A DNA stretch of 41,549 bases from a virus. Of the stretch, positions 20,200 to 24,329 are shown in pieces. Made by a program: the position numbers and the translations under genes. The notes beneath the pieces are model-generated. The model did no database searches and was not told the origin of the DNA. It worked only from the letters and a program-made list of their open reading frames with translations. Position 1 is the stretch's first letter; each line of letters opens with the position of its first letter. Location: IMG/VR virus record IMGVR_UViG_3300045988_064955. One strand, 5' to 3'.

Positions 20200-21348
20200 T
20201 CAAACGTAATATATGGCTGTCGTATCATGATCCGAATATTCAATTAGCTCAAACGTCTTATGAGCCACAACTCCGAGATCATCTGTCCATTTGTCAGTAG
20301 GCTTTCTCGTGGACATCTGTCTTTGCACAAATCCCCCAAGGTCTTTACTCATTTCTGAATGTAAGTGCCCAGTTATCAGTTCGCGATTCTGTGCTGTGCC
20401 TAACATGAAGCCAAACTCATCTAGATATTTTGCAAGGTAGTTGTTCTTACCCTTGTCTCCGTGAGTAGCGCCAATGAAGTTATGGCCTAACATTGTGCCT
20501 TTGTAATGCTTCAGTGATATATCCCAAGTGATGTTCGACTGGTTGCTGTAGGCACGTTTCAATAGACGTGCAAACATATATCCAACTGACGGATCGTGGT
20601 TACCTGGCGCATACATGACCTCACACTCATTGGCGTTCTTAATGATTGCTTCTATCAGCGTCTCGAAGTATTGTTCCATTTCGTTCACAGTCTCGCCTAG
20701 GTCGGTTGTTTCGAGCTGTGTGCCCTTTGCTGTGGTCGAGTTGATATTATCCACATGAGCAAGATCACCGCCCAGAATAAGCAATACTTTGGCGTAGTGG
20801 CCGCGTTGAATGATCTCTAGCTGACGCTTAAGAGATTCCGCATAGATGTCGAATGTGTGACCGTTGAAATGCGTGTCGAAAGCAGGAATGACCAGATAGC
20901 GATCTGATTCCACAAAAATAGGAGCCTTAGCTTGATACGGCTCCTTGTGTGTGATGATGTCATTCATCAGCGATTCATATTGTTCTGCTTCAACTAACGG
21001 CCTGATTTGTATCTTGCTTTGATACAACGTTGCTTCAGGCGTCTGCTTCCAGAAGTTGCTTGTAGCACGTACAAGCTCCCACTTGGTGTAATCATACCCG
21101 TGAGCTTCCAGAACCTCTCTAGGCGTCATTTTGTGGCCCCTGACAACCTTTAGAATGGTTTCACTGGACTGTGTACCGTCTGAATCGTATTCATTCTTGA
21201 CTGGTTTTTGGAACTCGATGCCAAGCCGTCTTGCTTTACCTTGAAGCGCATCATAGCTAATCCCGAGTTTGTCGGCTGTCTCGCGTCTGGTAAAGCCTTC
21301 AGAGGCGAGCTTCCTAATGTCACCGATCTGTTCATCTGTCCATTGCAT
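20200..21348 (-). CDS. N-terminal HTH domain fused to a calcineurin-like metallophosphoesterase
   Basis: HTH: TRRETADKLGISYDALQGKARRLG. All five MPE motifs occur in order: FDTHFNG, LGGDLAHVD, APGNHD, GATHGD, TGHLHSE. Confidence 0.8.
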   Translation of the reverse strand: MQWTDEQIGDIRKLASEGFTRRETADKLGISYDALQGKARRLGIEFQKPVKNEYDSDGTQSSETILKVVRGHKMTPREVLEAHGYDYTKWELVRATSNFWKQTPEATLYQSKIQIRPLVEAEQYESLMNDIITHKEPYQAKAPIFVESDRYLVIPAFDTHFNGHTFDIYAESLKRQLEIIQRGHYAKVLLILGGDLAHVDNINSTTAKGTQLETTDLGETVNEMEQYFETLIEAIIKNANECEVMYAPGNHDPSVGYMFARLLKRAYSNQSNITWDISLKHYKGTMLGHNFIGATHGDKGKNNYLAKYLDEFGFMLGTAQNRELITGHLHSEMSKDLGGFVQRQMSTRKPTDKWTDDLGVVAHKTFELIEYSDHDTTAIYYV

Positions 21349-21461
21349 CTACTCGCCTCCTGAAATATAATGACCGTGAGCAGTTTGATGACGCTGCTCA
21401 CATTCTCATGAAGAACTTCCCGAGTTCTTAAGCCCTCGGATTAGGCCCCGAAAGCTTTTTT
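21343..21461 (+). ncRNA. Array A unit a: candidate small RNA transcription unit
   Basis: Promoter TTGCAT-N17-TATAAT (21343..21371) overlaps the RBS and start of the - strand gene. Perfect hairpins GTGAGCAG/CTGCTCAC (21376..21401) and AAGAACT/AGTTCTT (21411..21429). An imperfect terminator stem (21430..21457) is followed by a T6 run ending at 21461. Confidence 0.4.
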
Positions 21462-21516
21462 GTTGCTTAAAAAATTTCGATGAGTTAGAATTAAATTGTT
21501 CCCAACAGATACTCAT
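21406..21516 (-). CDS. Possible 36-aa basic peptide (competing explanation for part of array A)
   Basis: AAAGGAGTGAAAATG gives a strong RBS. The product reads MSICWEQFNSNSSKFFKQQKSFRGLIRGLKNSGSSS. It is below the track threshold and overlaps the predicted + strand units. Confidence 0.3.
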   Translation of the reverse strand: MSICWEQFNSNSSKFFKQQKSFRGLIRGLKNSGSSS

Positions 21517-21576
21517 TTTCACTCCTTTGTAATACCCTTTCTTTAGGCTCTCGGCCCCCAACCGAGGGCTATTTTT
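21463..21576 (+). ncRNA. Array A unit b: candidate small RNA transcription unit
   Basis: Promoter TTGCTT-N17-TAGAAT (21463..21491). Terminator stem 21546..21554 / 21562..21570 has 9 bp, two of them G:U that exist only in the + sense. T-run at 21572..21576. An exposed CACUCCUUU lies at 21520..21528. Confidence 0.45.
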
Positions 21577-21712
21577 GTATCTTCTATAAGGAATGTGCTA
21601 ATATATATGCGTGAGTAGTGTCTTTTCTCCTCCAAGTCAACCGCTGCTGCTCACACAAGTATTTCGTTTTTTCATTCTTTTGGCTCTTGGACTGGTCTCT
21701 GAGGGCTTTTTT
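21575..21712 (+). ncRNA. Array A unit c: candidate small RNA transcription unit (paralog of unit a)
   Basis: Promoter TTGTAT-N18-TGcTAATAT (21575..21604). Hairpin GTGAGTAG/CTGCTCAC (21611..21654) has CUCCUCC in its loop (21627..21633). The terminator at 21683..21706 has three G:U pairs that form only in the + sense. T6 run at 21707..21712. Confidence 0.45.
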
Positions 21713-21733
21713 AATCCGATTTATTGCTACATG

Positions 21734-21818
21734 TGTTATACTCTTTTTCGGTACCGTTGTTTCACCTCAGTAAACACCGGTAGCTAGGCCCTCAGTTAAT
21801 CGCTCAGAGGGCCTTTTT
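21734..21818 (+). ncRNA. Array A unit d: candidate small RNA transcription unit
   Basis: Extended -10 TGtTATACT (21734..21742). Hairpin CCGTTGTTT/AAACACCGG (21754..21780). Terminator GGCCCTC/GAGGGCC (21787..21813) is followed by T5 at 21814..21818. Confidence 0.45.
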
Positions 21819-21825
21819 GTTGCAC

Positions 21826-21856
21826 AAAAATAGCACCTCACCGTTTGGCGGAGTGC
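21826..21856 (-). terminator. Rho-independent terminator of the 286-aa orphan gene
   Basis: - sense GCACUCCGCC aaac GGUGAGGUGC uauuuuug. Two G:U pairs form only in the - sense. It lies about 30 nt after the stop at 21889. Confidence 0.6.
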
Positions 21857-21888
21857 TTTAGTAAATAAAAAGATGCCAAAGCGTCATA

Positions 21889-22749
21889 TTAGCTCTCTTG
21901 GTTTGTAGCACTAGATTTCGAAACGGCTGCCTTAAGCATATTCCCAGCATCGGTCGGACGTTCAGCATAAATTAACTCTGAAGGATTATTGGGATTAGCG
22001 TATGGTGGATTCAGCGTTCCCGAAATAAATTCAGCTAACTTATTTGATTCTAAATCAACGATTGCCATCTGGATGCTTGTCTTCTCAATGTTAGAAAAAA
22101 CTGGCACTTTGCTAAATGCGGTTGCTACCCATCCAGTATTGTCTCCCTGCACTCTACCATCTACAGCAATGAATGCTTTTGGTCCTGGAACTAACGGCCA
22201 ATGGTCTGAATTCCGAAGCAGAGTTAGAGCTAGCGGAGAACTTCTGTCTATTAAATTCAAAATGCTCTTGTTCTTAGAAAAAGTGCTTCCCCAATCTTTT
22301 TCATTTGCAAGATTACCCAGATAATCAGACATAATATCTAACATATCATCATCTGATGGAGCATCTGACAGTAGGGAGACTATTTTCGAATAGATACTCA
22401 GTCCGTACGGATTTGTGAGGAGAGAACTCAACCTGTGAAGGCCCTGCTCTTGATCATCGGTCTTTTGTAGATATTCTGCCAAAAGCAAAGTCTTCTTCAT
22501 GTCATCCAAACGGTCTTTTAAATGATCCCCCGTATCCACAAGATCAAGGATCAGATCTCCCCATTTGCCGTTTAAGACGTCTACCGCCAGCTGCTTTCCT
22601 TTCGACTTGGCAGTATCGACCACTGCTGACCTCACATCCTTACTATCAAGCTTTTTCTGCTCTATTCTCTTATCCAAGCTCATTTTCTCAGCATGCAAAA
22701 GATATTCTGGATGCTCAATCATGGCCCGAATTTCCGCTTTCTTGTCCAT
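21889..22749 (-). CDS. Orphan 286-aa protein, own transcription unit (moron-like); function unknown
   Basis: RBS GAGGTGAT lies 5 nt before the ATG, and the gene has its own terminator. It has a helical charged N-terminal half and no motif I recognise. It is flanked by non-coding RNA-like regions on both sides. Confidence 0.7.
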   Translation of the reverse strand: MDKKAEIRAMIEHPEYLLHAEKMSLDKRIEQKKLDSKDVRSAVVDTAKSKGKQLAVDVLNGKWGDLILDLVDTGDHLKDRLDDMKKTLLLAEYLQKTDDQEQGLHRLSSLLTNPYGLSIYSKIVSLLSDAPSDDDMLDIMSDYLGNLANEKDWGSTFSKNKSILNLIDRSSPLALTLLRNSDHWPLVPGPKAFIAVDGRVQGDNTGWVATAFSKVPVFSNIEKTSIQMAIVDLESNKLAEFISGTLNPPYANPNNPSELIYAERPTDAGNMLKAAVSKSSATNQES

Positions 22750-22869
22750 TTCGTATCACCTCACAAAAATAGTACCCCAGCATGAACTGGAATACTACAT
22801 TGAGGTGATTAAGTGAGCACTGCGCAGCCGTTTTCCGCCGGCCAATCTGGTGCACGTTTGATAGCGCAA

Positions 22870-22934
22870 TGTGGCATGCGGGAATCGAACCCGCCTGACT
22901 ATCTCAGCCAGTCCTCATTGCCACGCCTTGCCAC
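22870..22934 (-). other. tRNA-like fragment (canonical T-arm + acceptor 3' strand, anticodon-arm-like hairpin, no D-arm)
   Basis: - sense GTGGCAAggcGTGGCAAtgagGACTGgctgagaTAGTCagGCGGGTTCGATTCCCGCATGCCACa. The T-arm is perfect (GCGGG TTCGATT CCCGC). The acceptor pairs 6 of 7. There is no D-arm, only a 2-nt variable region, and C at position 33. Confidence 0.5.
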
Positions 22935-23036
22935 AGCTTTATCATCACTGAGGCTCGGAGGAAAAATGCGGTGTCTCAGGTTTCTCACCTTTGGCACAAT
23001 ACAATCATATGACGGAAAAGCGTGTTTTTTGTTGCA

Positions 23037-23489
23037 TCATTGTTGCACGGATGTTGCAACTAGTTTCACTAGCGGACATATTTCAGCAAAAGCATAGAGA
23101 GCTTCTTGTGTTTGTCGCCAAAGGGTCGTTCGGTCAACATGCAAGTGAGCGGCTAACTGAAGGCTGGATTTACGTGTCGTCTTTGGAGTCAGATAGCTCT
23201 CAACTAAGATGATGCGGTAGTCTTCATTCTCTATAGATTCAATAGCACCTTCACAGCACGCTATATAGTACAGCTCGTCAGCGTGCGATACGAGCTTGTC
23301 CTCGGCTTTATTTCCATAGCTGGGTGACTTGGGCATGCCGTCCATCACGGGGCTTCTGAGCGCTATTTTGGTGCGTTGAGCGAGCCGCTTGTGATGCCAG
23401 TAGTTCCCCAAGACCTCTTTGGCGTTTTCAATTGTTTTGTCATGATCAATTGGGCTAAAATATCTCGTTGCTCGCACCACTGCGTCCAC
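23037..23489 (-). CDS. arpU: ArpU-family late transcription regulator
   Basis: ..IDHDKTIENAKEVLGNYWHHKRLAQR.. plus a C-terminal sigma-r4-like ..LAAHLHVDRTTLWRQTQEALYAFAE. It sits at the early/late boundary. The real start is probably the GTG at 23480, 8 nt after AGGAG. Confidence 0.75.
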   Translation of the reverse strand: MDAVVRATRYFSPIDHDKTIENAKEVLGNYWHHKRLAQRTKIALRSPVMDGMPKSPSYGNKAEDKLVSHADELYYIACCEGAIESIENEDYRIILVESYLTPKTTRKSSLQLAAHLHVDRTTLWRQTQEALYAFAEICPLVKLVATSVQQ

Positions 23490-23495
23490 TCCTTA

Positions 23496-23560
23496 TGGTA
23501 TAATTAAATTTGTAAAAGTTTGGGGAAACGGCGTGCCGTAATGGTGCGCTTTTGTTTTTT
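23496..23560 (+). ncRNA. Array B unit 1: candidate small RNA transcription unit
   Basis: Consensus extended -10 TGgTATAAT (23496..23504) abuts the arpU RBS on the opposite strand. Terminator GCGTGCC/GGTGCGC (23531..23549) has two G:U pairs that form only in the + sense. T-rich run at 23550..23560. Confidence 0.45.
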
Positions 23561-23561
23561 G

Positions 23562-23630
23562 TGATATACTTGCTGTTCAAATAATTCGATTTGATAGACT
23601 GAGTCGTCCTGTTAATCCGGGGCGACTTTT
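23562..23630 (+). ncRNA. Array B unit 2: candidate small RNA transcription unit
   Basis: Extended -10 TGaTATACT (23562..23570). Terminator GTCGTCC/GGGGCGAC (23603..23626) has one G:U that forms only in the + sense. T4 run at 23627..23630. Confidence 0.4.
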
Positions 23631-23735
23631 GCTATACTACCTTTGGAGATGCTTTCTTATGCGTGTTAACCTTATAAGTTGGGGAACAATCTGATTCAAG
23701 CATCTCCCGCGCGTTGCTTATGTGACGCGCTTTTT
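23630..23735 (+). ncRNA. Array B unit 3: candidate small RNA transcription unit
   Basis: Extended -10 TGcTATACT (23630..23638). A perfect 10-bp stem GGAGATGCTT/AAGCATCTCC (23645..23707) encloses a 43-nt loop. Terminator GCGCGT/ACGCGC (23709..23730) is followed by T5. Confidence 0.45.
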
Positions 23736-23833
23736 GGTATACTGTATACGGAGGCCAAATCCTAATCTTTTATTTAATTCACTCTCAATCGTACGTCTGG
23801 CCTCCGGCGCGTCCTTCACCAGACGCGCTTTTT
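23735..23833 (+). ncRNA. Array B unit 4: candidate small RNA transcription unit (paralog of unit 3)
   Basis: Extended -10 TGgTATACT (23735..23743). A perfect 8-bp stem GGAGGCCA/TGGCCTCC (23750..23805) encloses a 40-nt loop. Terminator GCGCGTC/GACGCGC (23807..23828) is followed by T5. Confidence 0.45.
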
Positions 23834-23841
23834 GTTTACAA

Positions 23842-23913
23842 TCATTTTCCTCTTTTCCAGTTAGCCCACGCCCAAATTGCAGCACCTGAGATTAGCAGCA
23901 TTACGGCAATCAT
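23842..23913 (-). CDS. Possible 23-aa hydrophobic peptide coupled to yopX (ATGA overlap)
   Basis: Hand translation gives MIAVMLLISGAAIWAWANWKRGK. The ATG overlaps the YopX TGA. A weak + strand promoter-like TGtTTACAAT (23833..23842) would read antisense through it. Confidence 0.3.
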   Translation of the reverse strand: MIAVMLLISGAAIWAWANWKRGK

Positions 23914-24329
23914 TGCTTTCCCTCCAATAGCTGTTTGTCCTCAAAGATGTTTCCGATTACCTCGCACGTCTCAACACCTTCTTGAAAAATAGTTGCGAGT
24001 GCGTTTGCATCATAACTCCATGATGTCGGTATGCCTTCCAAATCAAATGCTGGGTAGTCCTCCTTGCCAAACCATTTTACTGTTGCTACATAAGATTCCC
24101 AGTCTTCTGACGTGACTTTCAGAATATCGCCTTCGTAGATTTCTCGGCCGTTCTTGTCTTTGAGCCCAGTGTATTGCATGAGTTCATAGCTATCCGCAAG
24201 TTGTAATTCTGCATCATACGCATCTTCGATAAGGCTCCATAATCCGCTTGGACCAAAATTCATAGCGGCAACATCAACCATCACTTTGTCTTTTTTGTTC
24301 CACGCTCTGAACTTAATCTCTCGTTTCAT
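23910..24329 (-). CDS. YopX family protein
   Basis: MKREIKFRAWNKKDKVM.. and ..QYTGLKDKNGREIYEGDIL.. are hallmark YopX sequences. Confidence 0.85.
   Translation of the reverse strand: MKREIKFRAWNKKDKVMVDVAAMNFGPSGLWSLIEDAYDAELQLADSYELMQYTGLKDKNGREIYEGDILKVTSEDWESYVATVKWFGKEDYPAFDLEGIPTSWSYDANALATIFQEGVETCEVIGNIFEDKQLLEGKQ

Follow-up and report, generated by a model that had tools for sequence, protein, structure and literature searches.

What is encoded in a 540-bp gap between two phage genes, and does it act on the phage that carries it or on the host? The gap (21349-21888) lies in a 41,549-nucleotide stretch of viral DNA, IMG/VR record IMGVR_UViG_3300045988_064955, referred to here as the window. 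The window is a temperate siphophage or prophage of Lacticaseibacillus (casei, paracasei, rhamnosus group) read in reverse: the - strand holds nearly all phage genes, and the integrase and repressor genes are on the + strand at 35.3-38.1 kb. An earlier sequence-only reading had proposed that the gap consists of four insulated + strand mini-genes (units a to d), antisense to the flanking genes. This proposal is supported by our analysis, since homologues of units a, b and c are discrete RNAs in the lysogen L. casei BL23. The gap very probably comprises four independently transcribed small RNA (sRNA) genes that are expressed from the prophage and read against the phage genes. Each unit has a promoter of the housekeeping type and an intrinsic terminator of its own and specifies a structured RNA of 70-100 nt, and the units are exchangeable cassettes.

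Promoters and terminators of the four units

The promoters, hairpins and T-runs (21456-61, 21572-76, 21707-12, 21814-18) were checked on the sequence, and all proved to lie exactly where the sequence-only reading had placed them (Table 1). The promoter hexamers alone are statistically unremarkable: a stricter promoter scan did not list them because their -35 boxes match at only 3/6 positions, and a relaxed scan lists only promoters a and d. The argument for their reality comes from conservation and from the RNA 5' ends of homologues, which lie 7 nt past the predicted -10 boxes of a, b and c. By hexamers, conservation and these ends, a, b and c are promoters of the sigma-70/SigA type, and d is a predicted one.

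The exonuclease start codon (ATGCAA), read as its reverse complement, gives the -35 box of promoter a, in agreement with the earlier observation that the first promoter sits on this codon. Promoter a is kept ahead of all A1, A2 and A3 unit types despite their differing RNA bodies, and relatives without an array have TATGTA where it has TATAAT. Across 21 variants of promoter b, invariant columns make up 5/6 of the -10 box and 4/6 of the -35 box, and only 7/17 of the spacer. The TGn extended -10 box of promoter c is kept in all variants, as TGCTAATAT, TGCTATTAT or TGTGATAAT. In the 17 D1 variants, TATACT of promoter d is unchanged throughout (17/17), and the TG motif with its spacer base is kept in 16, one variant having TGC for TGT.

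On the + strand, a terminator scan called b (21546-70) and c (21682-707); within the gap it called none on the - strand. A looser scan, which also calls unit d, found 17 + strand terminator-like sites in the 41.5 kb, of which 3 fall in this 540 bp against ~0.2 expected; it missed unit a because the stem of that unit has two C.A mismatches. A GC-rich stem-loop followed by a U-tract is thus found at the end of the units, with a weaker stem but a T6 run in unit a. The terminator of unit a is better in the - sense, owing to its C.A mismatches in the + sense.

No known RNA family was matched: Rfam gave no gathering-score hits in the window and only chance-level hits (E up to 10) in 21200-23100, and ARAGORN found no tRNA. 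CRISPR-repeat mimics and type III ToxI-like repeats were rejected, as the units are not repeats of one another.

Table 1. Features of the array locus, related loci and homologous BL23 RNAs. Positions are those of the window unless a relative is named. SD, Shine-Dalgarno sequence; ORF, open reading frame; HTH, helix-turn-helix; CPM, counts per million.
Feature	Position	Strand	Description
Promoter a	21343..21371	+	TTGCAT 21343-48, N17, TATAAT 21366-71; from sequence and conservation
sRNA a (type A1, ~84 nt)	21378..21461	+	5' hairpin GAGCAG..CUGCUC, second hairpin, weak terminator with two C.A mismatches, U6
Promoter b	21463..21491	+	TTGCTT 21463-68, N17, TAGAAT 21486-91; fused to unit a T-run
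sRNA b (type B, ~79 nt)	21498..21576	+	unstructured 5' half with core AUACUCAUUUUCACUCCU; terminator GGCUCUCGG..CCGAGGGCU with 2 G.U pairs
Promoter c	21575..21604	+	TTGTAT 21575-80, N18, TGcTAATAT (TAATAT 21599-604, extended -10)
sRNA c (type C, ~101 nt)	21611..21712	+	12-bp 5' stem around 20-nt loop UUUUCUCCUCCAAGUCAACC, U-rich linker, terminator with 4 G.U pairs
Promoter d	21734..21742	+	extended -10 box TGtTATACT; same promoter type as second array
Predicted sRNA d (type D1, ~70 nt)	21749..21818	+	5' end predicted; hairpin loop CACCUCAG, terminator GGCCCUCAG..CUCAGAGGGCC, U5
Intrinsic terminator of 286-aa gene	21825..21857	-	hairpin 21832-57, U-run toward low side; from sequence and looser scan
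36-aa micro-ORF	21406..21516	-	phage sense; strong SD (AAAGGAGTGAAAATG); initiation region is complement of sRNA b core
Exonuclease gene (382 aa) with its SD	20200..21361	-	GcrA-type HTH and metallophosphoesterase (PF07750, PF00149, phrog_704)
286-aa gene			upstream of gap in phage sense; function unassigned; phrog_15873
Second array	23496-23835	+	four promoter-hairpin-terminator units between arpU-like gene start (23489) and gene 23910-24329
csbD cassette (relatives R29.1, BH1)	L002 1860-2320; L003 2900-3370	+	different last unit, D2, comes next
sLCB577.3- (86 nt)			type A1 (unit a); CPM 148 / 188 / 459 (PMC8220740)
sLCB577.2- (79 nt)			type B (unit b); CPM 1057 / 1435 / 8123; Northern-verified (PMC8220740)
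sLCB577.1- (101 nt)			type C (unit c); CPM 10,202 / 10,282 / 2,779 (PMC8220740)
sLCB1266.9- (75 nt)			type A2 (relatives only); CPM 470 / 744 / 3978; second prophage (PMC8220740)
sLCB1266.7- (63 nt)			type E (relatives only); CPM 62 / 58 / 163; second prophage (PMC8220740)

Homologous RNAs in a lysogen

Mickute et al. (2021) sequenced the 50-500-nt RNAs of the lysogen L. casei BL23 in a strand-specific manner from six pooled growth points and listed 307 putative sRNAs (PMC8220740). Homologues of the units were taken from supplementary tables S2 and S8 of that study (PMC8220740). Five RNAs, the homologues of types A1, B, C, A2 and E, are each recorded with a promoter and a terminator and occur in all three libraries (PMC8220740). 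Aligned end to end, unit a (21378-21461) matches sLCB577.3- at 72/84 positions, unit b (21498-21575) matches sLCB577.2- at 68/77, and unit c (21611-21711) matches sLCB577.1- at 85/101, so that the three units are overall 84-88% identical to the BL23 RNAs. The 3' ends of these homologues fall within the T-runs. The predicted + strand 5' and 3' ends therefore have counterparts in BL23 for a, b and c, and none for the d type.

The sLCB577 RNAs map to the defective prophage PLE4 (557,260-588,824) and the sLCB1266 RNAs to PLE3 (PMC9600169). This origin points to expression in the dormant prophage state.

In the same cells, the phage-sense RNAs sLCB577+ and sLCB1266+ are reported only as fragments of 85 and 92 nt. 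Each fragment bridges the interval between two sRNAs and extends ~20-35 nt into the antisense RNAs on either side; the fragments have no predicted promoter or terminator and are 2-80x less abundant than the antisense RNAs. By homology with BL23, the units are thus cis-encoded antisense RNAs, that is, discrete short RNAs opposite a transcribed phage RNA.

Folding and strand preference

Both strands were folded. The array as a whole folds better in the + sense (-127.9 vs -116.3 kcal/mol; z-score -4.5 vs -2.5), an advantage that comes mainly from unit c (-23.8 vs -12.4 kcal/mol). Unit d also prefers the + sense (-27.6, z -5.1, vs -25.3 kcal/mol), and the - sense is slightly better for unit a (-26.2 vs -27.1 kcal/mol) and unit b (-14.9 vs -15.9 kcal/mol). 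Consensus folds of the unit types favour the + sense for B (-15.6 vs -10.3), C (-22.5 vs -10.9), D1 (-25.7 vs -20.1), D2 (-24.8 vs -18.6) and E (-18.7 vs -10.2), are neutral for A2 and favour the - sense for A1 (-23.7 vs -30.8). The sequence-only reading had argued for + sense RNA from G:U pairs that would be C:A mismatches on the other strand; such pairs are present (two in stem b, four in stem c), and the strand argument holds for 5/7 unit types.

Comparison of variants supports two of the structures. In unit d, 94.7% of cells are paired, against 31-50% in slid controls, and three pairs change on both sides (U-A/C-G, A-U/G-C, C-G/U-A). For the 5' stem of unit c, pairing holds in 95.4% of cells, compensatory changes are seen at three pairs, and 499/500 shuffles score lower for covariation. 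As the sequences are closely related, these counts support the d hairpin and the c stem without proving them. Conservation outside the stems is also high: 13/20 columns of the 20-nt loop of unit c (UUUUCUCCUCCAAGUCAA..) are invariant vs 12/24 in the stem, and the core of sRNA b has a mean column identity of 0.98 vs 0.78 in the adjacent segment.

Cassettes in a fixed slot

We compared 89 loci anchored on the exonuclease gene, within a wider pool of 346 loci. An array is present in 63/89 loci (17 architectures). In the remaining 26, the slot holds a 34-nt junction, - strand ORFs or a methyltransferase-like gene. The pooled loci yield ~146 distinct arrays, in which about nine unit types (A1, A2, A3, B, C, D1, D2, E, F) combine into at least 20 architectures, with up to six units per array. 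Unit order is fixed in the ~146 arrays: A-B-C-D1-(F or D2), or ending in E. The commonest form, A1-B-C-D1, is that of the window. Whatever the unit content, the array starts exactly on the exonuclease start codon in 141/146 distinct arrays. The slot is bounded on one side by the upstream accessory gene with its terminator and on the other by the ribosome-binding site (RBS) of the exonuclease-HNH-terminase block.

Neighbouring units have a junction in common, CTTTTTTGTTGC, where the T-run of one terminator continues into the -35 box that follows (CTTTTTTGTTGCa/t). In BH1, R29.1, C3.1 and other relatives, the array contains a + strand csbD gene (PF05532, 47.9 bits; general-stress-like) with its own promoter, SD and terminator; this cassette is absent from the window and is flanked by the shared junction where present. 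An IS30-family element is inserted exactly at the same junction, in either orientation, in three IMG/VR contigs (L031, L061, L088). Some units are chimeric, for example one that combines a C-type 5' half with a D1 terminator.

Units a and c share the stem GTGAGyAG/CTGCTCAC, as described earlier, from which it had been concluded that the array grew by duplication. Duplication accounts for only part of the pattern: similarity between units is limited to 10-30-nt segments (the a/c stem, terminator arms and junctions), and cassette gain and loss, the shared junction and the chimeras indicate a cassette region, not a simple tandem duplication. The units have the properties of morons, being autonomous promoter-cargo-terminator elements that are variably present and, on the evidence of PLE4 and PLE3, expressed from the prophage.

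Several further arrangements were observed in the slot. One of the IS30-carrying loci (L088) has an inverted copy of units d, c and b after the element. In three IMG/VR loci (L017, L028, L070), the slot holds a - strand DNA-methyltransferase-like gene, judged by eye, in which CAGTTGYTG tandem repeats vary in number. In phage A2 and others, the slot is taken by small - strand ORFs.

Genomic surroundings and a second array

The closest phage record is L. rhamnosus phage R10.1, with 98.5% identity over the gap. Downstream of the gap in the phage sense, the 382-aa gene is annotated 'DNA repair exonuclease' in relatives; it anchors the array invariantly on the left and opens the HNH-terminase block, in which an HNH/NUMOD endonuclease gene and then the terminase genes follow. 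The 286-aa gene on the other side has no Pfam match and no match to a PADLOC defence family. Its terminator is specific to the - sense, as the sequence-only reading had described. It faces the unit d terminator and forms the conserved right-hand boundary of the slot, its motif AAAAATAGCACC being kept in relatives with and without an array. A cos site was considered for this region and rejected, since the terminase genes follow only after another 3.5 kb and the region is ~3.5 kb from the genome end in the linear record of phage A2.

An 83-aa ORF (21150-21401, -) overlaps the beginning of the exonuclease gene in the +1 frame, and an SD-ATG within the unit-a region of A2- and A3-type arrays leads into this frame. 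This ORF is probably fortuitous.

An arpU/RinA-like activator gene (phrog_248) lies 1.2 kb upstream of the gap in the phage sense, and a second + strand array of four units precedes it (Table 1). The first promoter of this array abuts the arpU-like RBS, and its extended -10 boxes are TGgTATAAT, TGaTATACT, TGcTATACT and TGgTATACT. It has homologues in BL23 as well: sLCB573.6-, sLCB573.5-, sLCB573.2- and sLCB1264.9- match it at 90-92% identity, and sLCB573.6-, sLCB573.5- and sLCB1264.9- align to 23518-23632, 23645-23833 and 23512-23835, respectively.

Two other RNA elements were noticed in the same region. A 127-nt phage-sense RNA (22870-22996, -) has a tRNA-like 3' half with an acceptor-like stem, an anticodon-like arm, a T-arm (GCGGGUUCGAUUCCCGC) and the 3' end ..GCAUGCCACA. 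It is called by neither ARAGORN nor Rfam. Homologues were detected in BL23 as sLCB574.1+ and sLCB1265.4+ (124/127 identical), and phages JNU_P10 and R24.2 have three such elements, none called as a tRNA. In the leader of the 286-aa gene (22752-22809, -), the SD (UGAGGUG) is hidden in one extended stem that it forms together with an anti-SD (CACCUCA), a 13-bp terminator hairpin and a U-run; the fold has -31.3 kcal/mol (z -6.6). Its BL23 homologue is the 3' end of sLCB574.4+, a 129-nt terminated RNA classed as derived from a 5' untranslated region. This leader looks like an attenuator or a riboregulatory leader.

Role of the array and alternative explanations

The role that we favour, while stopping short of calling it probable, is an antisense lock that is expressed in lysogeny and acts in cis on read-through into the packaging genes. 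In a lysogen, some phage-sense transcript would leak past the upstream terminator. The antisense RNAs would pair with the ~480-nt leader of this transcript, including the micro-ORF initiation region, and expose it to cleavage, and head-on transcription from the four convergent promoters would interfere with leaked phage-sense transcription. The packaging and late genes would then stay silent until full lytic transcription overrides the lock. The second array would act likewise ahead of the arpU-like activator, and exposed CU-rich loops may act in trans as well, so that the cis lock is possibly accompanied by additional regulation in trans.

We favour the cis role because the RNAs are fully complementary to the leader that every phage-sense transcript must cross to reach the exonuclease-terminase block, because phage-sense RNA in BL23 is reported only as the two short fragments overlapping the antisense RNAs, because the arrays are anchored on the exonuclease initiation region, and because a second four-unit array, whose homologues are expressed in BL23, abuts the arpU-like RBS. 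Also bearing on the cis lock is the finding that the best-conserved part of sRNA b is the complement of the micro-ORF initiation region, the peptide itself not being conserved.

Several points weigh against this interpretation. The RNA evidence concerns BL23 homologues, not this phage, and unit d is without a counterpart there; BL23 RNA was RppH-treated, so that its 5' ends are not proven primary (PMC8220740). The role of the units is inferred. The phage-sense fragments are bounded by hairpins and could be ordinary decay intermediates instead of products of duplex cleavage. Anchoring on the start codon could merely reflect the insertion site, and the array is dispensable, as 26/89 relatives do without it. 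Conservation is higher in the loop of sRNA c than in its stem, which a purely cis mechanism does not need because complementarity is automatic, and the csbD protein cassette, which occupies this slot in the orientation of the units, fits an accessory (moron) role directed at the host.

The main alternative, which we consider possible but on the whole unlikely, is that the units are trans-acting riboregulators, sRNA 'morons' carried as lysogenic-conversion cargo, and their antisense position is merely a safe insertion site. CU-rich, anti-SD-like segments (UCUCCUCCA in the c loop, CACUCCU in b, CACCUC in d) would pair with the RBS of host or other-phage mRNAs, the predicted pairing being assigned to the loop UCUCCUCC and the core CACUCCU. 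Conserved loops and unpaired cores beside stems that change with compensation are consistent with this explanation, as are the recurrence of the CU-rich motif in unrelated unit types, the cassette-like presence and absence, the csbD moron with the same kind of promoter and terminator, and very high expression from a defective prophage with no lytic programme to control. However, no target stands out in the 41.5-kb window: RNAduplex comparison with 74 initiation regions gave nothing better than shuffled sRNAs, and seed-complement scans of the window hit only cis sites. Seed complements were likewise absent from the BL23 sRNA list, and a scan of genome contigs with the unit-b core gave nearly all chance matches, only two L. 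zeae contigs being relevant. CU-rich runs are, moreover, expected opposite purine-rich, SD-bearing leaders, and the micro-ORF initiation region that lies opposite the b core likewise explains its conservation. A more ambitious version, which we regard as improbable, combines both modes of action: an integrase-less, integron-like sRNA cassette system of Lacticaseibacillus temperate phages, shuffled by recombination with exchange at the terminator-promoter junction, whose two arrays bracket the late-activator block and serve as a programmable antisense lock on late genes and as an anti-Shine-Dalgarno library that reprograms the lysogen.

Two further explanations are less likely. The units could be transcribed shells without function, promoter-terminator remnants of repeated insertion and deletion of protein morons at a recombination hot spot, with the RNAs as by-products. 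The csbD and IS30-family insertions at the shared junction, the chimeric units and the array-less relatives fit this explanation, but hairpins kept by compensatory changes, promoter hexamers and unpaired cores conserved against variable flanks, a fixed unit order, the lack of visible ORF remnants and the high RNA abundance make it quite improbable. More improbable still is that the locus encodes phage-sense micro-proteins, such as that of the 36-aa ORF (which the sequence-only reading had entered as a caveat), or that sRNA b serves as antitoxin in a type I toxin-antitoxin pair. This ORF has a strong SD and an ATG, its initiation region is highly conserved, a BL23 phage-sense fragment contains its start, and it is open (29-55 aa) in 19 contexts. 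Yet its residues change radically, its C-terminal frame varies with the upstream unit, one variant has an ACG start codon, and the variable columns by codon position (8/21, 13/21, 8/20) show no third-position excess; the conserved part is the initiation region. Units a, c and d have no comparable ORF. From this pattern, the 36-aa ORF is probably not a protein gene and was set aside as such. The toxin-antitoxin variant was rejected, as the peptide is hydrophilic (grand average of hydropathy -0.73), unlike type I toxins, is not conserved and has no codon-position bias.

Comparison with known systems

Far more has been charted of phage-encoded regulatory RNAs in E. coli and Salmonella than in Gram-positive bacteria. 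The arrays represent an entire class of phage cargo made of RNA: as many as six concatenated mini-genes occupy one fixed slot and are exchanged like cassettes between phages that are otherwise nearly identical and belong to probiotic and dairy species in wide use, and the array RNAs rank with the most abundant small RNAs in the lysogen. Should the arrays lock late genes, they would add a new level to the maintenance of lysogeny, with a bearing on how stable prophages are in starter and probiotic strains; should they act in trans, they would give prophages a route to rewire host translation. The BL23 strain, its RNA ends and a working Northern probe exist, and the question is therefore directly testable.

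Cis-antisense RNAs are known from temperate phages: lambda OOP acts against cII, lambda paQ is the anti-Q RNA, and P22 Sar acts against ant. The array RNAs resemble them in size (~70-100 nt), in having their own promoter and intrinsic terminator, in being carried by a temperate phage and in lying against the mRNA of lytic functions. As P22 Sar covers an RBS, sRNA b covers that of the micro-ORF, and as lambda paQ damps a late regulator, the second array might do so ahead of arpU. Unlike these single genes, the arrays set four to six heterologous insulated units head to tail in non-coding leader DNA, and unit number and type vary between close relatives; pairing, RNase III cleavage and any effect on lysis or lysogeny are putative here.

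Morons, a concept from HK97 and lambda, are promoter-gene-terminator cassettes expressed from the prophage. The units are like them in being autonomous, inserted between phage genes, variable among near-identical phages and expressed in the lysogen, with a csbD moron in the same slot. They differ in that the cargo is RNA, not protein, and that the cassettes are concatenated in a fixed order with the T-run of one fused to the promoter of the next. Listeria LhrC1-4 is a tandem sRNA cluster of Firmicutes. It shares with the array back-to-back sRNA genes with their own promoters and terminators, and CU-rich exposed motifs that could pair with an SD. In contrast to LhrC1-4, near-identical chromosomal siblings controlled by one regulator, the units are mostly unrelated, phage-borne and antisense to a phage leader, and as homology over the whole RNA is lacking, they are not a sibling sRNA cluster.

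The nearest known RNAs are the BL23 transcripts themselves: sLCB577.1-,.2- and.3- are direct homologues of units c, b and a, and sLCB1266.9- and.7- of types A2 and E. The statement in the sequence-only reading that no such phage element had been described was therefore overstated, as the transcripts are listed, undiscussed, in the 2021 sRNA catalogue (PMC8220740). That catalogue gives them singly as intergenic or antisense candidates and does not discuss prophage location, the array, cassette variation or function; the word 'prophage' appears once, in a figure legend (PMC8220740). A literature search on the sLCB577 and sLCB1266 names found no follow-up paper, and a limited literature search found no description of up to six heterologous sRNA mini-genes in a fixed slot, cassette-shuffled and with a sister array ahead of a late activator. 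Taken together, phage antisense RNAs, morons and tandem sRNA clusters are already known and the individual transcripts are public; the part that appears to be new is the array organisation.

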